A stretch of DNA of 34,547 nucleotides from a virus (lineage: Duplodnaviria; Caudoviricetes): the IMG/VR virus record IMGVR_UViG_3300037483_000621, positions 1 through 34,547 of that record; one strand, written 5' to 3'. The notes beneath the pieces are model-generated. The model was not told the DNA's origin. It ran no database searches and saw only the letters and a program-made list of their open reading frames with translations. How positions within the stretch are numbered: position 1 is the first letter of the stretch; the number at the start of each line of letters is the position of its first letter. The position numbers were made by a program, and so were the translations under genes. Positions 1,400-34,356 of the stretch are shown piece by piece.

Positions 1400-2242
1400 A
1401 TGCACAGGGCGATGCCGCCCGCGTGGCGTGGGGGCATTGAAGCGTGGATCCCGTGGCTGCGATCGCGCGGCCTGAAGGAATCCTCGATCGGCGCACGCGT
1501 CGAACACCTCAGCACACTCGCACGCAGCATCCGCATCGACAGCCCGTGGACCGTCACGCGTGATGACCTCATCGACTGGGTCGGACAACAAGGCTGGGCA
1601 ACCGAGAGCAGACGCAGCCGCTACACGTCGATCAGCCAGTTCTACGACTTCGCCCTCGAGCGCGGACTCGTCGACGTCTCCCCCGCCAACGTCCTCCCGC
1701 ACGTGCGCGCCGCGATCGCGAACCCACGACCCATCCCGCACGAGACATACGCCCCCGTCCTCGCACGCGCCGACGACAGACTCACACTGATGCTGCGCCT
1801 CGGCTTCGAGGCCGGGCTACGGCGTGCAGAGATGGCAGTCGTCCACACCCGCGACATCAGCCGCGACCTCGGGGGATGGACGCTCAACGTTCACGGCAAA
1901 GGCGGCAAGGATCGCGCCGTGCCACTCAACGATTCGCTGGCCCTCGCACTTCGCGCGGCCTGCCTTGCCGGTGGTGGCTGGTGCTTCCCAGGCGACTACC
2001 ACGGCCACCTGTCCGCGCCCTACATCGGCAAACTGCTCGCCCGCGCACTGCCCGAACCGTGGACCGCGCACACCCTGCGGCATGCGTTCGGCACGGAGTT
2101 GCTACGCCTCGGTGTGGACCTGCGCACCATCCAGTACCTGCTCGGCCACTCCTCGGTGGCCACCACCCAGCGATACACGAAGCCCACCGACGAGGCACCA
2201 CGGGCTGCCGTCGACGCACTGCGCAACCGCTACGCCGGCTGA
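1400..2242 (+). CDS. int: Tyrosine integrase, small (280 aa), no N-terminal arm-binding domain
   Basis: Catalytic motifs GLRRAE, HGKGGK, HTLRH, LLGHSS, TQRY; next to att. ATG 1400 lies 6 nt after TACTTT (leaderless -10). Confidence 0.96.
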   Translation: MHRAMPPAWRGGIEAWIPWLRSRGLKESSIGARVEHLSTLARSIRIDSPWTVTRDDLIDWVGQQGWATESRRSRYTSISQFYDFALERGLVDVSPANVLPHVRAAIANPRPIPHETYAPVLARADDRLTLMLRLGFEAGLRRAEMAVVHTRDISRDLGGWTLNVHGKGGKDRAVPLNDSLALALRAACLAGGGWCFPGDYHGHLSAPYIGKLLARALPEPWTAHTLRHAFGTELLRLGVDLRTIQYLLGHSSVATTQRYTKPTDEAPRAAVDALRNRYAG

Positions 2243-2258
2243 CCGGCGCGCCTCGCCC

Positions 2259-2534
2259 CTAGGAGTAGCAGCCCACGTCTCGCATGATGGCATCGATGTA
2301 CGCCATGAGTTCGGCGTTGCCCGTGCCGGTACGCTCCCGCTGTTGCGCGTTGTTGGCGTCGGCGGTGTCGAACTCGCCCTGCAGCCCGTCGCAGTCGGCC
2401 GCCACCTCGAGGGAGTCGATGCGGTCCTTCACCGAGGCGTCGTAGTTGTCCCACGGCACGCCACCTCCGTCGCCACACGACGAGAGAGTCAGGGCCGCGA
2501 GCGCGATCGCGCTCGTCTTCACGATGTTGACCAT
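2259..2534 (-). CDS. Small lipoprotein (possible superinfection exclusion protein)
   Basis: Signal peptide with lipobox LSSC; acidic mature part with two more Cys; TAGGGT -10 six nt before ATG. Confidence 0.75.
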   Translation of the reverse strand: MVNIVKTSAIALAALTLSSCGDGGGVPWDNYDASVKDRIDSLEVAADCDGLQGEFDTADANNAQQRERTGTGNAELMAYIDAIMRDVGCYS

Positions 2535-2614
2535 GACTTCACCCTAGCGGCGAGGGCCCGCGGCGTCACGGACCCAACGGCCGCGGCTGTTCGTGAACGA
2601 GCCTCTTCCCCAGT

Positions 2615-2643
2615 TTGACATGATAGGTTTTCTATCGTATGCT
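2615..2643 (+). promoter_or_regulatory. Near-consensus SigA promoter with palindromic operator in the spacer
   Basis: TTGACA(2615-2620)-17 nt-TATGCT(2638-2643); GATAG-N5-CTATC at 2622..2636. Confidence 0.9.
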
Positions 2644-2694
2644 TTAGGTACTAGGTCAGGCACAAGGCCAGACCGAGACCCACAGGGGATTCAG

Positions 2695-2925
2695 ATGCAA
2701 GACAAGTTCTCAGACCACGAAGTACTCGTGGCCCACAGCATCGGCGAAATGGCCGGGATGCTCCACATCGACGGCGGACCCCGCGCAGAGCGCAAGGCCC
2801 GCAACGCCGCCCAAACCCTCGCTGAGGACGTCGCCGCGATCGCGATGTTCTCCCTGCCGAAGATGGCGGTGTTCCGGGGGATGGCAGGCAAGATCGCCGC
2901 AGACCACGTCCGCAAGTACTCATAG
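2695..2925 (+). CDS. 76-aa protein of unknown function; candidate anti-CRISPR/anti-defence protein
   Basis: ATG 2695 after ACAGGGGA RBS; first gene behind the strong promoter and upstream of an Aca2-like gene. Function inferred from context only. Confidence 0.75.
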   Translation: MQDKFSDHEVLVAHSIGEMAGMLHIDGGPRAERKARNAAQTLAEDVAAIAMFSLPKMAVFRGMAGKIAADHVRKYS

Positions 2926-2931
2926 GGAGAG

Positions 2932-2953
2932 GGCCCCGGGGAAACCCGGGGCC
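2932..2953 (+). other. Perfect 9-bp GC hairpin with GAAA tetraloop, intergenic
   Basis: GGCCCCGGG-GAAA-CCCGGGGCC with no U-tract. Confidence 0.8.
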
Positions 2954-2982
2954 ACACCCCGCCCAACACCACAGGAGAGACC

Positions 2983-3366
2983 ATGAAGAATCAGACCGAA
3001 GACCAGATGACCGGCGCCGAGTTCCGATGCCTGCGCGAACAACTCGGCCTCACCGTCGCATGGCTGTTCGACTACCTCGGCGTAGGTGAAGCCACCGTGA
3101 ACCGGTGGCAAGACGGCAAGATGAACATCGCGCCCGGCGTCGTCGACGACATGCTCGAGCTCGAGGCGATCGCCGCCAAGTCCGTAGCGGCGGCCGTCGC
3201 TCGCCTCGACGGCACCAACGAGCCTCTGTTGACCGTTCCGCGCACTGACGCAGCGCTGCTGCGCGAACACCCCGACGACACCTACCCAGCCTCTTGGCAC
3301 CGCGCAATCGCCTCGCGCGTCCGCGAGCGCGTGCCGGGTCTGCGGATCGAGTTCGTCGCCGAGTAG
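2983..3366 (+). CDS. Aca2/YdiL (DUF1870)-like HTH regulator
   Basis: MTGAEFRCLREQLGLT...VGEATVNRWQDGKMNIAPGVVDDMLEL follows the Aca2/DUF1870 pattern, with a C-terminal dimerisation-like region; ~125 aa; ACAGGAGA RBS. Confidence 0.8.
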   Translation: MKNQTEDQMTGAEFRCLREQLGLTVAWLFDYLGVGEATVNRWQDGKMNIAPGVVDDMLELEAIAAKSVAAAVARLDGTNEPLLTVPRTDAALLREHPDDTYPASWHRAIASRVRERVPGLRIEFVAE

Positions 3367-3409
3367 GCGACACCTTGTGCGTTCGGCCTGAATCCCCGGG
3401 ACGCACAAA

Positions 3410-3455
3410 GACGCCCCCTCACCCTGCCCGGCGAACCGGTGGGTGAGGGGGCGTC
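3410..3455. terminator. Hairpin between the convergent accessory operon and late operon
   Basis: 15-bp inverted repeat GACGCCCCCTCACCC / GGGTGAGGGGGCGTC; second hairpin at 3375..3408. Confidence 0.8.
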
Positions 3456-3492
3456 GTGCTTGGTGTGCGGCCGTTCTGGCTGCCGCGGGTAG

Positions 3493-3939
3493 TCAGGTGG
3501 CCGTGACGGCCTCCGGGGGCCGCTTCGCGGCGTTCTTCACAAGAGCGAGCAGGGTGGTCGTCGCGGCGATCGACAGCATCGTCGGCCAGTCGACCTCGAA
3601 GACGTTGAGGACCTCGACGGCAAGCAACAGTGTCACGAGCGAGTTGCCGAAGGTGCGGACCACACGCCACGTCACAGCAACCCACACGGGTCTCGAGGTG
3701 GCCGGATCCGGCACCGACACAATCGACATGAGGAGAGACAGTCCACCCGATCCGAGGGTGACACCCACGACGAACACCCAGTCGACATCGACGAGTGATG
3801 CCCCGAGGGTGAACACCGACAGGGCGACGAGTTTCTCGGCAGCCTGGGAGCCGGCACGCTCGAGCGCGTCACCCCAGAAAGCTTTGGTGGTCAGGCGACC
3901 CAGCCACAAGGCGAGGGCCAGGCGAAGACGATCAAGCAT
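3493..3939 (-). CDS. Holin, r1t-like, tandem two-domain form
   Basis: FWGDALERA...DVDW and WRVVRTF...EVDW repeats, ~4 hydrophobic segments, in the lysis cassette; GGAAGGA RBS. Confidence 0.8.
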   Translation of the reverse strand: MLDRLRLALALWLGRLTTKAFWGDALERAGSQAAEKLVALSVFTLGASLVDVDWVFVVGVTLGSGGLSLLMSIVSVPDPATSRPVWVAVTWRVVRTFGNSLVTLLLAVEVLNVFEVDWPTMLSIAATTTLLALVKNAAKRPPEAVTAT

Positions 3940-5086: not shown

Positions 5087-5896
5087 CTACACGTATCCGA
5101 ATACTCGCAGCGTGCCACTCACCGTGCCCGCGGTCGGCACCAGAACGAGGCCATCAAACGCCGTCGCGTCGCGGTGTTGGATCACACCATCGACGACGCC
5201 GGCGGATGCGGTCATGGGATTGTCGGTAGTCCCCGTCCGATACGTTCCCACCGTCGCTGATGCTGTGCCTGGCGTCTCCAACACGATCTCTGACACGTGG
5301 CGCGCAGCAGTGAGATTTGCTACGAACTCCCAGTTTGTTTGACCGATCGACTGCGCGGAAGACGCCGACGCGCCCACGCCAGCCAAGCGTGTGCGGTCAT
5401 ACTTCGACGACCCGTCAGCAGTACCCGAGTTTGCCAACTGAAAGCGAAGGCCTGCAGCTGCCGACGTCGTCAAGTCAAAGCGAATGAGGTATGAGCGATA
5501 GGTCGCCGAGAAGATACCATTGACAACAATGTTCGAGGCCGCAGAGACCGTGATGATCCCCGACGAGTCGACACTCACACCCGTCCCCGCGACGGAAGAT
5601 GGTTTCACCCTCCGCAGCCCGCTGGTTGGAACGACCGGTTCGAAATTTGTGCCATCCGCCGTGAACTCGTGCTCCGAGCCACGATCCGCATCAGCCCTCC
5701 AGAAGAAGATAGGTGACGACGTCGACGGCACCACCGCCGGCGACGAGGCCGCCAACGACGCCAACAGCGTCGTGCGCGCCGCCGCATCAGCAACAGGGAA
5801 CGGATCGCGGAGCGACCGCGACAACTTGTCGAACGCAGACCGTGCAGGTGCGGCCGTCGATGCCGGCACGTAGTGGCCAGTGGCGTCGAGTCCCAT
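5087..5896 (-). CDS. Minor tail / receptor-binding protein
   Basis: Last tail gene; beta-rich S/T/G/A C-terminus ending GTLRVFGY. Confidence 0.7.
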   Translation of the reverse strand: MGLDATGHYVPASTAAPARSAFDKLSRSLRDPFPVADAAARTTLLASLAASSPAVVPSTSSPIFFWRADADRGSEHEFTADGTNFEPVVPTSGLRRVKPSSVAGTGVSVDSSGIITVSAASNIVVNGIFSATYRSYLIRFDLTTSAAAGLRFQLANSGTADGSSKYDRTRLAGVGASASSAQSIGQTNWEFVANLTAARHVSEIVLETPGTASATVGTYRTGTTDNPMTASAGVVDGVIQHRDATAFDGLVLVPTAGTVSGTLRVFGYV

Positions 5897-31310: not shown

Positions 31311-31618
31311 CACTGCACCTCCTCGAGGAGACGATCCGCACACCGACGCAGAGACTCCGCCTCGGCCTGCAGACCAGCCCACGTCGCGTCGTCCAACACC
31401 TCGTCCATGCCGCGGCGCAACAACACACGCGCCTCCGCACGCCACAAACCAGCCAGACGACGCATCTGGTAGCGGTGCCAGGCAGGTGTGGACCGGTCAG
31501 GTGCCGCGACCGCGAGATGCACGACCAAGCCGTGGACTCGCAGCAGGTTCACCTGCCACGGATCGAGACGCACACCCACCAACTCGAGTGCGGGCAAGAG
31601 CTCCTGTGCGGTGACCAT
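31310..31618 (-). CDS. Hypothetical protein
   Basis: TGATG-coupled on both sides. Confidence 0.7.
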   Translation of the reverse strand: MVTAQELLPALELVGVRLDPWQVNLLRVHGLVVHLAVAAPDRSTPAWHRYQMRRLAGLWRAEARVLLRRGMDEVLDDATWAGLQAEAESLRRCADRLLEEVQ

Positions 31619-31977
31619 CAGACGACCCCCACCTGGTTCATGGAATCCAAGACCGCCTCGACCTCACGCGACGCACGCTCAAGCGGCGCCAACCACGCCT
31701 GAGCCAAATACCGACGCGGATCCTCCGGCCGGATCGCCGCGAGCGCGGCCATGCCGTCGTTCACTGCACGCTCAGCGTCCTTGAAGCGTTCGAGAGCAGC
31801 CTCGAGGCGACGCAGGGCGACGTCCGTCGCGATCCATGCCGGCACGTCCGTGGCGGGTGTGGGTTCGGCGAGCTGCACACCACCGCACACGGTCAAGGGG
31901 GTTGCACCGCCGGCAAGCGAGGGGGGGTTGACTGCCGGCGGCACAAGCTCTAGGTAGGTGGGACGGTCCATGCTCAT
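31618..31977 (-). CDS. Hypothetical protein
   Basis: ATG 31977 overlaps the upstream stop; helical C-terminus. Confidence 0.65.
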   Translation of the reverse strand: MSMDRPTYLELVPPAVNPPSLAGGATPLTVCGGVQLAEPTPATDVPAWIATDVALRRLEAALERFKDAERAVNDGMAALAAIRPEDPRRYLAQAWLAPLERASREVEAVLDSMNQVGVV

Positions 31978-32105
31978 CGCTGGGCCTCGATCAACGCGAT
32001 CGCCGCGCCCGCGAGCAGCCCCGCACCCAACGCGAGGACCGAGACCACAGCAACAGCAACCCACCCAAAGGTGCGCCCCACGCGACGACCAGTGCTGTGC
32101 CTCAT
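31974..32105 (-). CDS. 43-aa single-TM protein
   Basis: MRHSTGRRVGRTFGWVAVAVVSVLALGAGLLAGAAIALIEAQR; GGAGG RBS. Confidence 0.7.
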   Translation of the reverse strand: MRHSTGRRVGRTFGWVAVAVVSVLALGAGLLAGAAIALIEAQR

Positions 32106-32455
32106 CACGATGCCTCCAGGTAGGTTGGTGCCGTGGTCGATGAATACTGGGCACCGATCGGCGCCCTTGCGAGCGTCGCGGCCCTCGCGCTACTCGTGGG
32201 GCAGGAGATTCGCACGCGAAGATCACGCCACAATCCGAAGCTTGAGGCGCAGCCCCTGCCCCTGGCACTGGCTCGGCGCGCACGACTGCGCAATGTCGGC
32301 CACGTGGCCGCGACGTCTGTGTTGGTGCTGCCACAAGGCTGCAAGCGGATCGGGAGCAACGCCCCCGGGTGGCGGTTCCCTCGAGTCGAGCCCGGCACTG
32401 CAGTCGACCTCGAGGACATCAGCGGCGATGACGAAGACAGTTGGTTCGCGCTCAT
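32105..32455 (-). CDS. Antisense bridging ORF (116 aa)
   Basis: ATGA overlap upstream and TGATG overlap downstream; low-complexity product; lies opposite 32133..32756. Confidence 0.4.
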   Translation of the reverse strand: MSANQLSSSSPLMSSRSTAVPGSTRGNRHPGALLPIRLQPCGSTNTDVAATWPTLRSRARRASARGRGCASSFGLWRDLRVRISCPTSSARAATLARAPIGAQYSSTTAPTYLEAS

Positions 32456-32756
32456 CTACGATCACCCACATCGACGTGGGTATTCGATTCACACGTGGGT
32501 TCCGCTGTATGTGGACGGGAAGTTGGCGCGGGTGCAGTTCGACCAAGCTGCTCAGCATCCATTGAGGATCTGGTGGCGAGGTCGAAGATGGACCGCAACT
32601 CCCGGACCTTCTGGAGTGCTCTCCACGACCAGGCGGTCCACACCACGAGCACTGCTACGGACAATGGGGCGAATCGATCAGCGCCAGGCACGAGCCACCA
32701 GGCGAGGCCACAAATGGCGGGCACGAGCGCGGCAGCGAAGTGCCACCGACGACTGA
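32133..32756 (+). CDS. Counter-oriented accessory protein with N-terminal TM helix
   Basis: TM helix, then a beta-rich domain (LRNVGHVAATSV); TAGGTT -10 six nt before GTG. Confidence 0.7.
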   Translation: MVDEYWAPIGALASVAALALLVGQEIRTRRSRHNPKLEAQPLPLALARRARLRNVGHVAATSVLVLPQGCKRIGSNAPGWRFPRVEPGTAVDLEDISGDDEDSWFALIYDHPHRRGYSIHTWVPLYVDGKLARVQFDQAAQHPLRIWWRGRRWTATPGPSGVLSTTRRSTPRALLRTMGRIDQRQARATRRGHKWRARARQRSATDD

Positions 32757-32874
32757 GGAAAAGTCCCGCTGATCCGGGCGTGTGGAACGCTCGCTCGGCA
32801 ACCTGTTCGATCTGTTGACGGACCACCCATCGCACCTGGTCCGTAGAAATCCCCACGACAACGCGGTTCACCAT
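32452..32874 (-). CDS. Two-TM membrane protein overlapping the plus-strand gene by 305 nt
   Basis: TGATG-coupled start; hydrophobic helices WHFAAALVPAICGLAWWLV and LSVAVLVVWTAWSW. Confidence 0.55.
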   Translation of the reverse strand: MVNRVVVGISTDQVRWVVRQQIEQVAERAFHTPGSAGLFLSRRWHFAAALVPAICGLAWWLVPGADRFAPLSVAVLVVWTAWSWRALQKVRELRSIFDLATRSSMDAEQLGRTAPAPTSRPHTAEPTCESNTHVDVGDRR

Positions 32875-33302
32875 CACGCCACCAGCCCTAGCGAGACACA
32901 ACCCGTGTCGGTAGCGTGGGTGCAATTCGATGGGGAGGAAATGCCGTGGCTAACGATTCTGTGCTTCCGAGCACTTGGTGCCGTCATCCTGAGGGTGAGA
33001 CCGCGCGTTATTGGTTGGAGATCGTCGGGGACGGCGGCGACGCCGACTTGTGCGATGGGTGTGTGGCCGAGTTGCGGTTGGCGGTGCAGCTTGCGCGGTC
33101 GCGCGGTGTGCCCTTCGCATTCGATTGGGGCTTCCCGGAGGATCAGCCCATGGTTGTGATCGTGGGCGACGATGCGACGGGGCCCGACGTCGTGGAGTAC
33201 TCGCTCACTGACGACACCGAGGTGACGCTCACTGTCGAGGAGGGTGACAGGCAAGACGATGTGATCGTTCTGAACGGCAAGGCTGCAGGCTAGACGCATC
33301 AC
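32874..33302 (-). CDS. Antisense bridging ORF (142 aa)
   Basis: GAGGAGG RBS with start overlapping the cro stop; stop overlaps the next ATG; spans all of 32946..33293. Confidence 0.4.
   Translation of the reverse strand: MMRLACSLAVQNDHIVLPVTLLDSERHLGVVSERVLHDVGPRRIVAHDHNHGLILREAPIECEGHTARPRKLHRQPQLGHTPIAQVGVAAVPDDLQPITRGLTLRMTAPSARKHRIVSHGISSPSNCTHATDTGCVSLGLVA
32946..33293 (+). CDS. Counter-oriented acidic accessory protein (115 aa, CxxC)
   Basis: GGGGAGG RBS before GTG 32946; TAGCGT -10 at 32912; very D/E-rich. Confidence 0.7.
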   Translation: MANDSVLPSTWCRHPEGETARYWLEIVGDGGDADLCDGCVAELRLAVQLARSRGVPFAFDWGFPEDQPMVVIVGDDATGPDVVEYSLTDDTEVTLTVEEGDRQDDVIVLNGKAAG

Positions 33303-33535
33303 GCCACCTCCTCGAGGTGACGTCGGGCGGCAGCAGTGCGGGCCTCCTGCTCAAGAAGCCTCTGCGCTGCGAGCGCGCGGATCTCAGACTCGAGGAACAG
33401 TCGAGCTCCAGTGGGGCCGGGCACTTTCACGTCGACGCGGAGGATGCCGCTGTCCGCCCACCTGATGGCTGTGCGTTGACTCACCCCGAGGATCGCCGCG
33501 GCGTCTCTGGTCGTTACTTGTCGAGTTGTTGACAT
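33299..33535 (-). CDS. Cro-like / excisionase-family HTH (HTH_17-like)
   Basis: VTTRDAAAILGVSQRTAIRWADSG...GARLF; divergent from the repressor; first early gene. Confidence 0.88.
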   Translation of the reverse strand: MSTTRQVTTRDAAAILGVSQRTAIRWADSGILRVDVKVPGPTGARLFLESEIRALAAQRLLEQEARTAAARRHLEEVA

Positions 33536-33542
33536 GTGACTA

Positions 33543-33571
33543 ACTATCGCCCGGTGCCTACGACGTGTCAA
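33543..33571 (-). promoter_or_regulatory. Early lytic promoter (leaderless)
   Basis: TTGACA-17 nt-GATAGT, 7 nt before the cro ATG. Confidence 0.8.
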
Positions 33572-33611
33572 GCGCAACACGACATTTGGGCGTGTCGCAG
33601 ACATTGCGCAC

Positions 33612-33640
33612 TTGCGCTATTGCGCGCGAGTGTCTAGTGT
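33612..33640 (+). promoter_or_regulatory. Repressor promoter
   Basis: TTGCGC-17 nt-TAGTGT, 7 nt before ATG 33648. Confidence 0.65.
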
Positions 33641-33670
33641 TGGTCACATGACAAAGGAAGGGGTACTGCG

Positions 33671-33967
33671 ATGATTCCCGAATTCACGATCGGTGATCGA
33701 CTGCGCAAGGCCCGCGAACTTGCGGACATGGAGCAGATTCCGTTTGCGACCAAGATCGGCGTCTCGCGCGCGAGCATCACGAACTGGGAGAACGGCCACA
33801 CCGTGCCCAAGCGGATGGTCCTCAACGCGTGGGCTCTCGCTACCGGCGTGCCGGTCGAGTGGCTTGAAACGGGAGCTGTTCCGCGGAACATGCACCCCGA
33901 TGGGCGCATGCCGCGTGCTGTTGGAGATACTGCGCGCCCGGAGGGATTCGAACCCCCAACCTTCTGA
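33671..33967 (+). CDS. Immunity repressor (XRE HTH), prophage-truncated 98-aa form
   Basis: IGDRLRKARE...FATKIGVSRASITNWENG...VPVEWLETG; reads through the att core; stop completed by the first host base. Confidence 0.93.
   Translation: MIPEFTIGDRLRKARELADMEQIPFATKIGVSRASITNWENGHTVPKRMVLNAWALATGVPVEWLETGAVPRNMHPDGRMPRAVGDTARPEGFEPPTF
33932..33966. repeat. att core, right junction (intact tRNA side)
   Basis: Identical to 1171..1205. Confidence 0.97.
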
Positions 33968-34005
33968 TCCGTAGTCAGATGCTCTATCCGTTGAGCTACG
34001 GGCGC
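33933..34005 (-). tRNA. tRNA-Arg(ACG)
   Basis: Cloverleaf GCGCCCG...TCTGA-CTACGGA-TCAGA...GGTTCGAATCC...CGGGCGCG; CCA not encoded. Confidence 0.97.
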
Positions 34006-34064
34006 ATGGTCCATACAGGACCGAGAAATGAGTATAGCGGTTTGGCGCGTGGGGCCGAACTCTG

Positions 34065-34158
34065 TGGCGGAGACGGTGGGATTTGAACCCACGGAGGGCT
34101 TTAACACCCTCACGGTCTTAGCAGGACCGCGCACTAGGCCGGACTATGCGACGTCTCC
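34065..34158 (-). tRNA. tRNA-Ser(GCT)
   Basis: GGAGACG acceptor, CT-GCT-AA loop, long variable arm, GGTTCAAATCC, GCCA end. Confidence 0.96.
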
Positions 34159-34216
34159 TAGTACTTGTTGTACGGCCACCTAGGATACCGGGCCGCCAGC
34201 CCGTAAGAAACCGCGG

Positions 34217-34248
34217 AAACGACGGGAGGGCGATCGCCGCTCCCGTCG
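34217..34248 (-). terminator. Terminator after the Cys-rich peptide gene
   Basis: CGACGGGAG...CTCCCGTCG stem followed by TTT on the minus strand. Confidence 0.65.
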
Positions 34249-34258
34249 CCTCATGCCG

Positions 34259-34342
34259 CTAGCAGCAGCCGCCACCGCAGCAACCACCGTCGCCGCCGCA
34301 GCAGCCGCCGTCGCAACATCCGTTGATGTCATTGAGTACCAT
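34259..34342 (-). CDS. 27-aa Cys/Gly-rich metallothionein-like peptide (host)
   Basis: MVLNDINGCCDGGCCGGDGGCCGGGCC*; strong AAGGGAGG RBS; own terminator; divergent from ArsR. Confidence 0.75.
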   Translation of the reverse strand: MVLNDINGCCDGGCCGGDGGCCGGGCC

Positions 34343-34356
34343 CGTCTCCACCTCCC

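Follow-up and report, generated by a model that had tools for sequence, protein, structure and literature searches.

Coupled antisense reading frames span backward genes in the early operons of a probable actinobacterial phage and its relatives

RESULTS

Gene content at the right end of the window. The DNA analyzed here, referred to as the window, is a whole virus record of 34.5 kb (34,547 nucleotides) with a GC content of about 65%. Its closest genome-borne relative is L142, a prophage in a Demequina assembly (loci are designated by L numbers) whose 119-aa early gene is 81% identical, and the host is therefore likely to be a related actinobacterium. At the right end (Table 1), a small helix-turn-helix (HTH) repressor gene, whose product shows about 50% identity to annotated actinophage immunity repressors, is divergent from a cro-like gene that lies downstream of a promoter-like site and opens a leftward early operon. 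The repressor ORF overlaps a tRNA-Arg gene, the putative attachment site, as the annotation of a homolog also states; a tRNA-Ser gene is located at the same end, and in the relative L002 the integrase is found past the same tRNA-Arg sequence. This resembles the actinophage layout with attP inside the repressor gene, which we take to be "integration-dependent immunity." An integrase-like gene resembling that of L002 lies at the opposite end of the window from the repressor (1412-2242, plus strand), a separation that is expected if attachment splits a repressor-integrase pair. Past the tRNAs, a short Cys/Gly-rich ORF (34200-34345, minus strand; MVLNDINGCCDGGCCGGDGGCCGGGCC) follows an HTH-like gene and possibly encodes a host metal-binding peptide. 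Many elements with this repressor (L187-L204) are small and satellite-like, with terminase, portal, and capsid genes beginning no more than 3 to 4 kb from cro.

Two genes on the plus strand, referred to as backward genes 1 and 2, lie between co-oriented genes of the early operon, as in a noncontiguous operon. Their presence there was claimed in an earlier note made from the sequence alone, and both proved to be real, as judged by the homologs of each and by a confident structure model for gene 2.

Table 1. Features of the early region and attachment site of the window
Feature	Position	Strand	Comment
Small HTH immunity repressor	33671..33967	+	Pfam HTH_3, E 2.6e-12; PHROG 2328
tRNA-Arg(ACG)	33932..34005	-	Likely integration site; putative attachment role
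Early leftward promoter-like site, TTGACA-17-GATAGT	33543..33571	-	Sigma-70 scan (2 sites found, 0.3 expected)
Cro/excisionase-like HTH gene, first of early operon	33299..33535	-	Pfam HTH_17, E 1e-8; PHROG 66
Bridge 1, codon-to-codon antisense frame over gene 1	32874..33302	-	141 codons from ATG 33299; TGATG at both ends
Backward gene 1, 115 aa, CxH and CxxC motifs	32946..33293	+	Homologs at 83% and 57%
-10-like TAGCGT for gene 1	32912..32917	+	Inside end of bridge 1
140-aa ORF, two hydrophobic segments	32452..32874	-	Overlaps 3' 305 nt of gene 2
Backward gene 2, 207 aa	32133..32756	+	12 homologs at 28-39%; alignment extends into C-terminal tail
-10-like TAGGTT for gene 2	32121..32126	+	6 nt ahead of GTG; leaderless-type spacing; from sequence only
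Bridge 2, shifted-frame antisense ORF	32105..32455	-	116 codons; ATGA to TGATG; GC 0.51/0.74/0.74
43-aa early membrane gene with GGAGG, conserved	31974..32105	-	Present in L002, L142, L153

The minus-strand chain. All four start/stop junctions claimed earlier for the minus strand were found in the sequence. The cro-like gene ends with GAGGAGGTGGCGTGATG, its stop codon occupying 33301-33299, and the GTG at 33302 and the ATG at 33299 lie in the same frame; bridge 1 (33299..32874) ends with GGTGGCGTGATG; the 140-aa ORF ends with AGATGA, with the next ATG at 32455; bridge 2 ends with GGAGGCATCGTGATG; and the 43-aa gene ends with CGATGA, from where the chain goes on by ATGA into 31977..31618. A start/stop overlap of -1 or -4 is present at each of the four junctions and at the one that follows, and the links contain no internal stops. 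The joint at 32874 is preceded by only GGTGG and the joint at 32105 by a good GGAGG; no terminator-like sites were found within 31500-34100.

All four minus-strand ORFs had been taken for bridges, a view that could not be sustained: only bridges 1 and 2 are pure bridges, that is, shadow frames. In L153, cro is coupled straight to the 43-aa gene by GTGA, which represents a cargo-free state; the segment 33299-32105 is therefore inserted cargo, and the 43-aa ORF belongs with the ordinary genes and not with the bridges. Bridge 2 had no protein-like features and matched no family in Pfam or PHROG. A 12-nt motif that combines a ribosome-binding site with the stop/start (GGTGGCGTGATG) lies at 33299-33310 and 32874-32885 and so ends both cro and bridge 1; in L001, the gene ends at 5357, 4941, and 4465 share such a motif in a longer form of about 24 nt, which lies on either side of both cassettes. 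Such a gene-end motif flanking each cargo unit could act as a recombination joint for cassette swapping.

Backward genes 1 and 2. In comparison with L001, gene 1 differs at 29, 27, and 54 of plus codon positions 1, 2, and 3, respectively, and residue identity is 61/101 for the plus-frame protein versus 39/101 for the peptide of bridge 1. Since the plus frame is the better kept and changes fall at plus position 3, bridge 1 is a codon-to-codon shadow, and these counts gave no sign of selection on its antisense peptide. The structure model of gene 1 was unusable (pLDDT 34). That of gene 2 (AlphaFold2; mean pLDDT 88) predicts an N-terminal membrane helix, an Ig-like sandwich, and C-terminal helices; because the Ig-like matches in fold searches were all of a generic kind (a TRAP beta-type chain at E 6e-4 and a protein of Microbacterium phage Min1 at E 1.6e-5), the gene was given no function. 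Its nearest clusters in the Atlas are unnamed Actinomycetota clusters (0.94), a search of 401 genomes for the gene 2 family gave one weak match, located outside any phage early operon, and a search with profile P0016 gave no matches. Neither backward gene matched a PADLOC model.

It had been proposed that each plus-strand gene has its own -10 box. The hexamers are present, but the sigma-70 scan picked up neither; TAGCGT recurs 34 nt ahead of the start in three relatives (L002, L142, and gene b of L001), and the TAGGTT of gene 2 was not seen elsewhere. Two more backward genes (2695-2925 and 2983-3366, plus strand) lie past the lysis region, where no coupled chain reaches them; the second encodes an HTH-protein-like product and has an open shadow frame.

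An overlapping membrane ORF as a link. The 140-aa ORF is likely to be a real overlapping membrane gene that doubles as a link of the chain, a view that rests on comparison with a Dermabacter prophage (L184) and on composition. L184 likewise carries a homolog of gene 2 in backward orientation within its early operon; in the corresponding frame lies a GTGA-coupled hydrophobic ORF with the same end position as the window ORF. Third-position A amounted to 0.33 and 0.30 in the two tails versus 0.13 and 0.15 in the cores, and the two-helix score was reached in 0 to 0.16% of recodings; the peptides of the window and L184 ORFs matched at a BLASTP E of 0.064 only. L002 has a near-identical block in which the 10 changed codons split evenly and are uninformative, and the L002 form had no match in the Atlas. 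At 7563-7750 of L002, gene 2 is reduced to a 3' remnant beneath a longer, 199-aa membrane ORF that is coupled straight to the 43-aa gene; the deletion left the chain intact. A reading of the 140-aa ORF as an ordinary gene facing an accidental read-through tail of gene 2 was rejected because the tail aligns across the gene 2 family. The suggestion that bridging ORFs are a source of overprinted genes survives for this one link, which looks overprinted.

Chance level in the window. The antisense stop rate is 0.0093 per codon in register and 0.020 and 0.032 in the other frames. When gene 1 was recoded synonymously and shifted in phase, 10.4% of trials reached the native downstream stop; for gene 2, the share was 3.9 to 5.6%. 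The joint chance for both genes is about 0.005, which for the window alone is suggestive and not decisive. The earlier note judged four junctions in a row unlikely by chance; the arrangement does stand above chance, but the count of four overstates the case. Of the TGA triplets in the window, 80% have A, G, or T as the preceding base, so that an NTGA overlap comes at almost no cost, and both outer joints are of the ordinary kind formed where coupled genes meet. What carries information is the phase of the frames and their lack of stops.

Backward genes in related loci. Loci were collected mainly via the repressor (28 + 16 + 17, including a few duplicates, and L184), and the counted set comprised 19 backward genes inside the early operons of 15 related actinobacterial loci; an opposite-strand gene pair past the operon end in L137, which is not bridged, and opposite-strand ORFs in loci with no recognizable early operon (L128, L170, L172, L173, L182, and L193-L197) were excluded. 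A coupled operon-strand chain ran over 18 of the 19 genes, compared with 5.1 expected under a null of recoding and phase that includes codon usage (P of about 3e-11 if the cases were independent; survey P values are rough because the cases share ancestry). With one gene per family, 14 of 14 were covered (13 of 14 if the failing member is chosen) versus 3.8 expected, and in 15 of the 19 the chain also ended on an overlap. By the same walk, 1 of 17 control genes outside early operons was covered; an eighteenth row, a doubtful 40-codon early-operon gene that was covered, had been set aside. The sole uncovered gene of the 19 is the Dermabacter gene 2 homolog, which has only ATA at the junction. 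Homology supports 9 of the backward genes, 8 of them covered; among the remaining 10, which are supported by codon score or a ribosome-binding site, a few could be shadows of real sense genes. A planned replicate gave 4 of 4 covered versus 0.83 expected, one gene (L201) passing the preset score rule and three being recognized by eye.

Two designs were found. In 14 of the 19 genes, a single codon-to-codon frame spans the insert; in the remaining 5, one of which fails, an operon gene overlaps the 3' end of the backward gene and an NTGA shift leads into the next frame. The window carries one of each (gene 1, single frame; gene 2, two-step). Behind a cro gene that is 74% identical, L002 carries an unrelated 290-aa HIRAN-domain gene under a 316-codon frame running from TGATG to the same joint; L142 has different cargo after the same cro, with a 192-codon bridge from TAGTG to TGATG; L001 has two successive bridged backward genes; and the single-frame design is also present in L152, L154, L175, L141, L174, L189, and L192. 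L201, L190, and L171 share the two-step arrangement of gene 2, with identical relative frames. A check of relatives for conserved junctions with unconserved peptides, proposed in the earlier note, gave that outcome: the junctions recur and the peptides do not.

Register was preserved in 12 of the first 15 genes (P = 3e-4) and in 8 of 10 families (P = 0.003), and in those 12 both spacers are multiples of three, with varied lengths. In L174, L171, and L192, the frame spans the insert with no terminal overlap, and the next gene has a strong ribosome-binding site of its own. TTA, CTA, and TCA are absent from 12 of the first 15 genes, versus 5.7 to 6.7 expected (P = 0.0006 to 0.004); no depletion is seen when the genes are pooled (15 such codons among 2266, near the control rate of 0.006 per codon), because three out-of-register genes hold all 15. 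This split by register is a prediction of the model proposed below, though one recognized in retrospect. Over gene 1, the C-over-G bias that Rho sites should show is strong (1.56); it is weak over gene 2 (1.06) and for 14 genes pooled (1.09), so that this evidence is mixed.

HIRAN-domain genes recur as backward cargo just after cro (L002, L174, and L154). Two of 15 cargo proteins, both from relatives (L174 and L154), match the PADLOC model PDC-M03B, and some cargo may therefore be defensive. In L171, an insertion sequence with terminal inverted repeats, presumably IS256-like, breaks the 3' end of the bridge at about 2200-3530 from the repressor start. The bridges of L152 (560-1261) and L175 (479-1006; both in repressor-based coordinates) have a helical protein-like start, and in L152 also such an end, as if cargo had been inserted in frame within a sense gene. 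Seven cultured actinophages had no annotated backward gene directly after excise, a metagenome scan gave one locus, matching L001, and a scan of viral contigs for a promoter-plus-joint DNA pattern gave 119 loci, which we read as chance matches.

DISCUSSION

The early operon of this phage is interrupted by genes on the opposite strand that encode conserved proteins, the operon strand over them remains open and coupled from end to end, and across the related loci such coverage is far above chance and confined to early operons. There is very probably selection for a continuous translatable path across the backward genes. We consider it probable that this selection keeps the coupled frames open so that ribosomes trail the polymerase and prevent premature termination of the lytic mRNA. 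According to this model, two accessory genes, each with a promoter-like site, lie backward inside a translationally coupled early operon, the operon strand over the cargo consists of gap-free coupled frames that are likely to be held open by selection, and ribosomes moving behind RNA polymerase across the insert would block a premature and probably Rho-dependent termination. We infer that induction is followed by translation of the bridges, that what counts is the cover by ribosomes and not the peptide, and that Rho is the threat. The backward genes may be expressed in the lysogen and shut off by the opposing early transcript, a suggestion borrowed from the account of tha/ith (PMC11087260). 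Protection from termination is favored because three bridges cover the insert with no terminal overlap, before genes with their own ribosome-binding sites, and because in Mycobacterium tuberculosis, itself an actinobacterium, Rho is reported to silence antisense RNA as well as foreign DNA (PMC5379054).

The main rival holds that transcription would proceed anyway and that the bridges serve only to pass ribosomes, by termination-reinitiation, to weakly initiating downstream genes. Coupling at ATGA and TGATG overlaps is described as established (PMC6728339), an exact overlap ends 15 of the 19 chains, and the weak GGTGG ahead of the joint at 32874 fits such a role; the three covered cases that reach a gene with its own ribosome-binding site do not, and the joint at 32105 is bridged despite a good GGAGG. 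As the only function of the bridges this appears unlikely, and it may operate together with protection of the transcript. A second rival dispenses with selection on translation altogether, attributing the bridges to open antisense frames in GC-rich DNA combined with recombination of cargo at the gene-end motif. The low in-register antisense stop rate, the motif shared by cro and bridge 1 together with the repeat around the L001 cassettes, and the open shadow frame of the unbridged gene at 2983..3366 are all compatible with it, and long frame -1 ORFs are described as a known effect of codon usage (PMC3454372); neither effect, however, sets the phase of the frame, which was in register in 12 of 15 genes and 8 of 10 families, codon usage was already part of the null, and only 1 of 17 controls was covered. 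We regard this explanation as largely refuted and give it very little credence.

True double coding would make every minus-strand ORF a functional protein, for example, an inhibitor of the backward gene in the manner of Tha/Ith. The 140-aa ORF does behave as a real overlapping membrane gene, and the abstract on Pseudomonas phage Fc02 describes opposite-strand overlapping exclusion genes beside the repressor (PMC9936078). Bridge 1, however, is less conserved than the plus-strand protein, with substitutions that track the plus frame, and bridges over unrelated cargo are alike only at their ends and match no family; for the chain as a whole, double coding is improbable.

Several known systems share parts of the arrangement for which we favor protection by ribosomes. 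The noncontiguous operons of Staphylococcus aureus and phage 80alpha, including tha/ith, have the same layout as the window (PMC11034616, PMC11087260), but their antisense stretch is described as untranslated and crossed by runaway transcription (PMC11034616), whereas that of the window is an open coupled frame. Translation of eta, a translationally coupled ORF of satellite P4, is reported to keep termination from occurring and thereby to allow transcription of the genes downstream (PMC10111431); as described there, eta lies in sense orientation over an immunity RNA and has a conserved product, in contrast to throw-away frames antisense to exchangeable cargo. Ambigrammatic narnaviruses likewise keep open a reverse ORF that is without homologs and whose translation itself seems to be the function, but they are RNA viruses of eukaryotes, and the ORF is described as genome long, with no operon or start-stop coupling (PMC8316113). 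The olg1/gene 10 pair of Fc02, an opposite-strand overlap right after a cro-like gene, can serve as a model for gene 2 with its overlapping membrane ORF; both of its products were shown to exclude phages, and its abstract mentions no bridging chain (PMC9936078). Bridge 1 uses the same, often open codon-to-codon frame as the shadow ORFs in frame -1, which, as described, are not phase-locked to neighboring stops and starts as bridge 1 is (PMC3454372). Our literature search, judged on the titles and opening abstract lines of papers available without subscription, found no description of bridge frames over backward phage cargo.

For annotation, the locus is a warning that a perfectly coupled, co-oriented ORF can be a decoy, the real gene being on the opposite strand; the finding also bears on the placement of payloads in engineered phages. 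A plausible but tentative extension, toward which we do not quite lean, is a general design rule for temperate phages of hosts in which transcription and translation are coupled: a lytic operon would admit backward cargo only where its own strand can still be translated across the cargo. Such a rule would restrict the codons of cargo, replace dedicated antitermination, and breed overprinted genes, among them the 140-aa membrane ORF, which would have persisted since the divergence from the Dermabacter prophage and may be a lytic-phase partner of gene 2. The model of ribosome cover itself, if correct, would predict the codons that phage cargo must avoid, offer a route to overlapping genes, and answer a question from the literature on noncontiguous operons, namely, how RNA polymerase gets past an antisense gene that is not translated when Rho is active.
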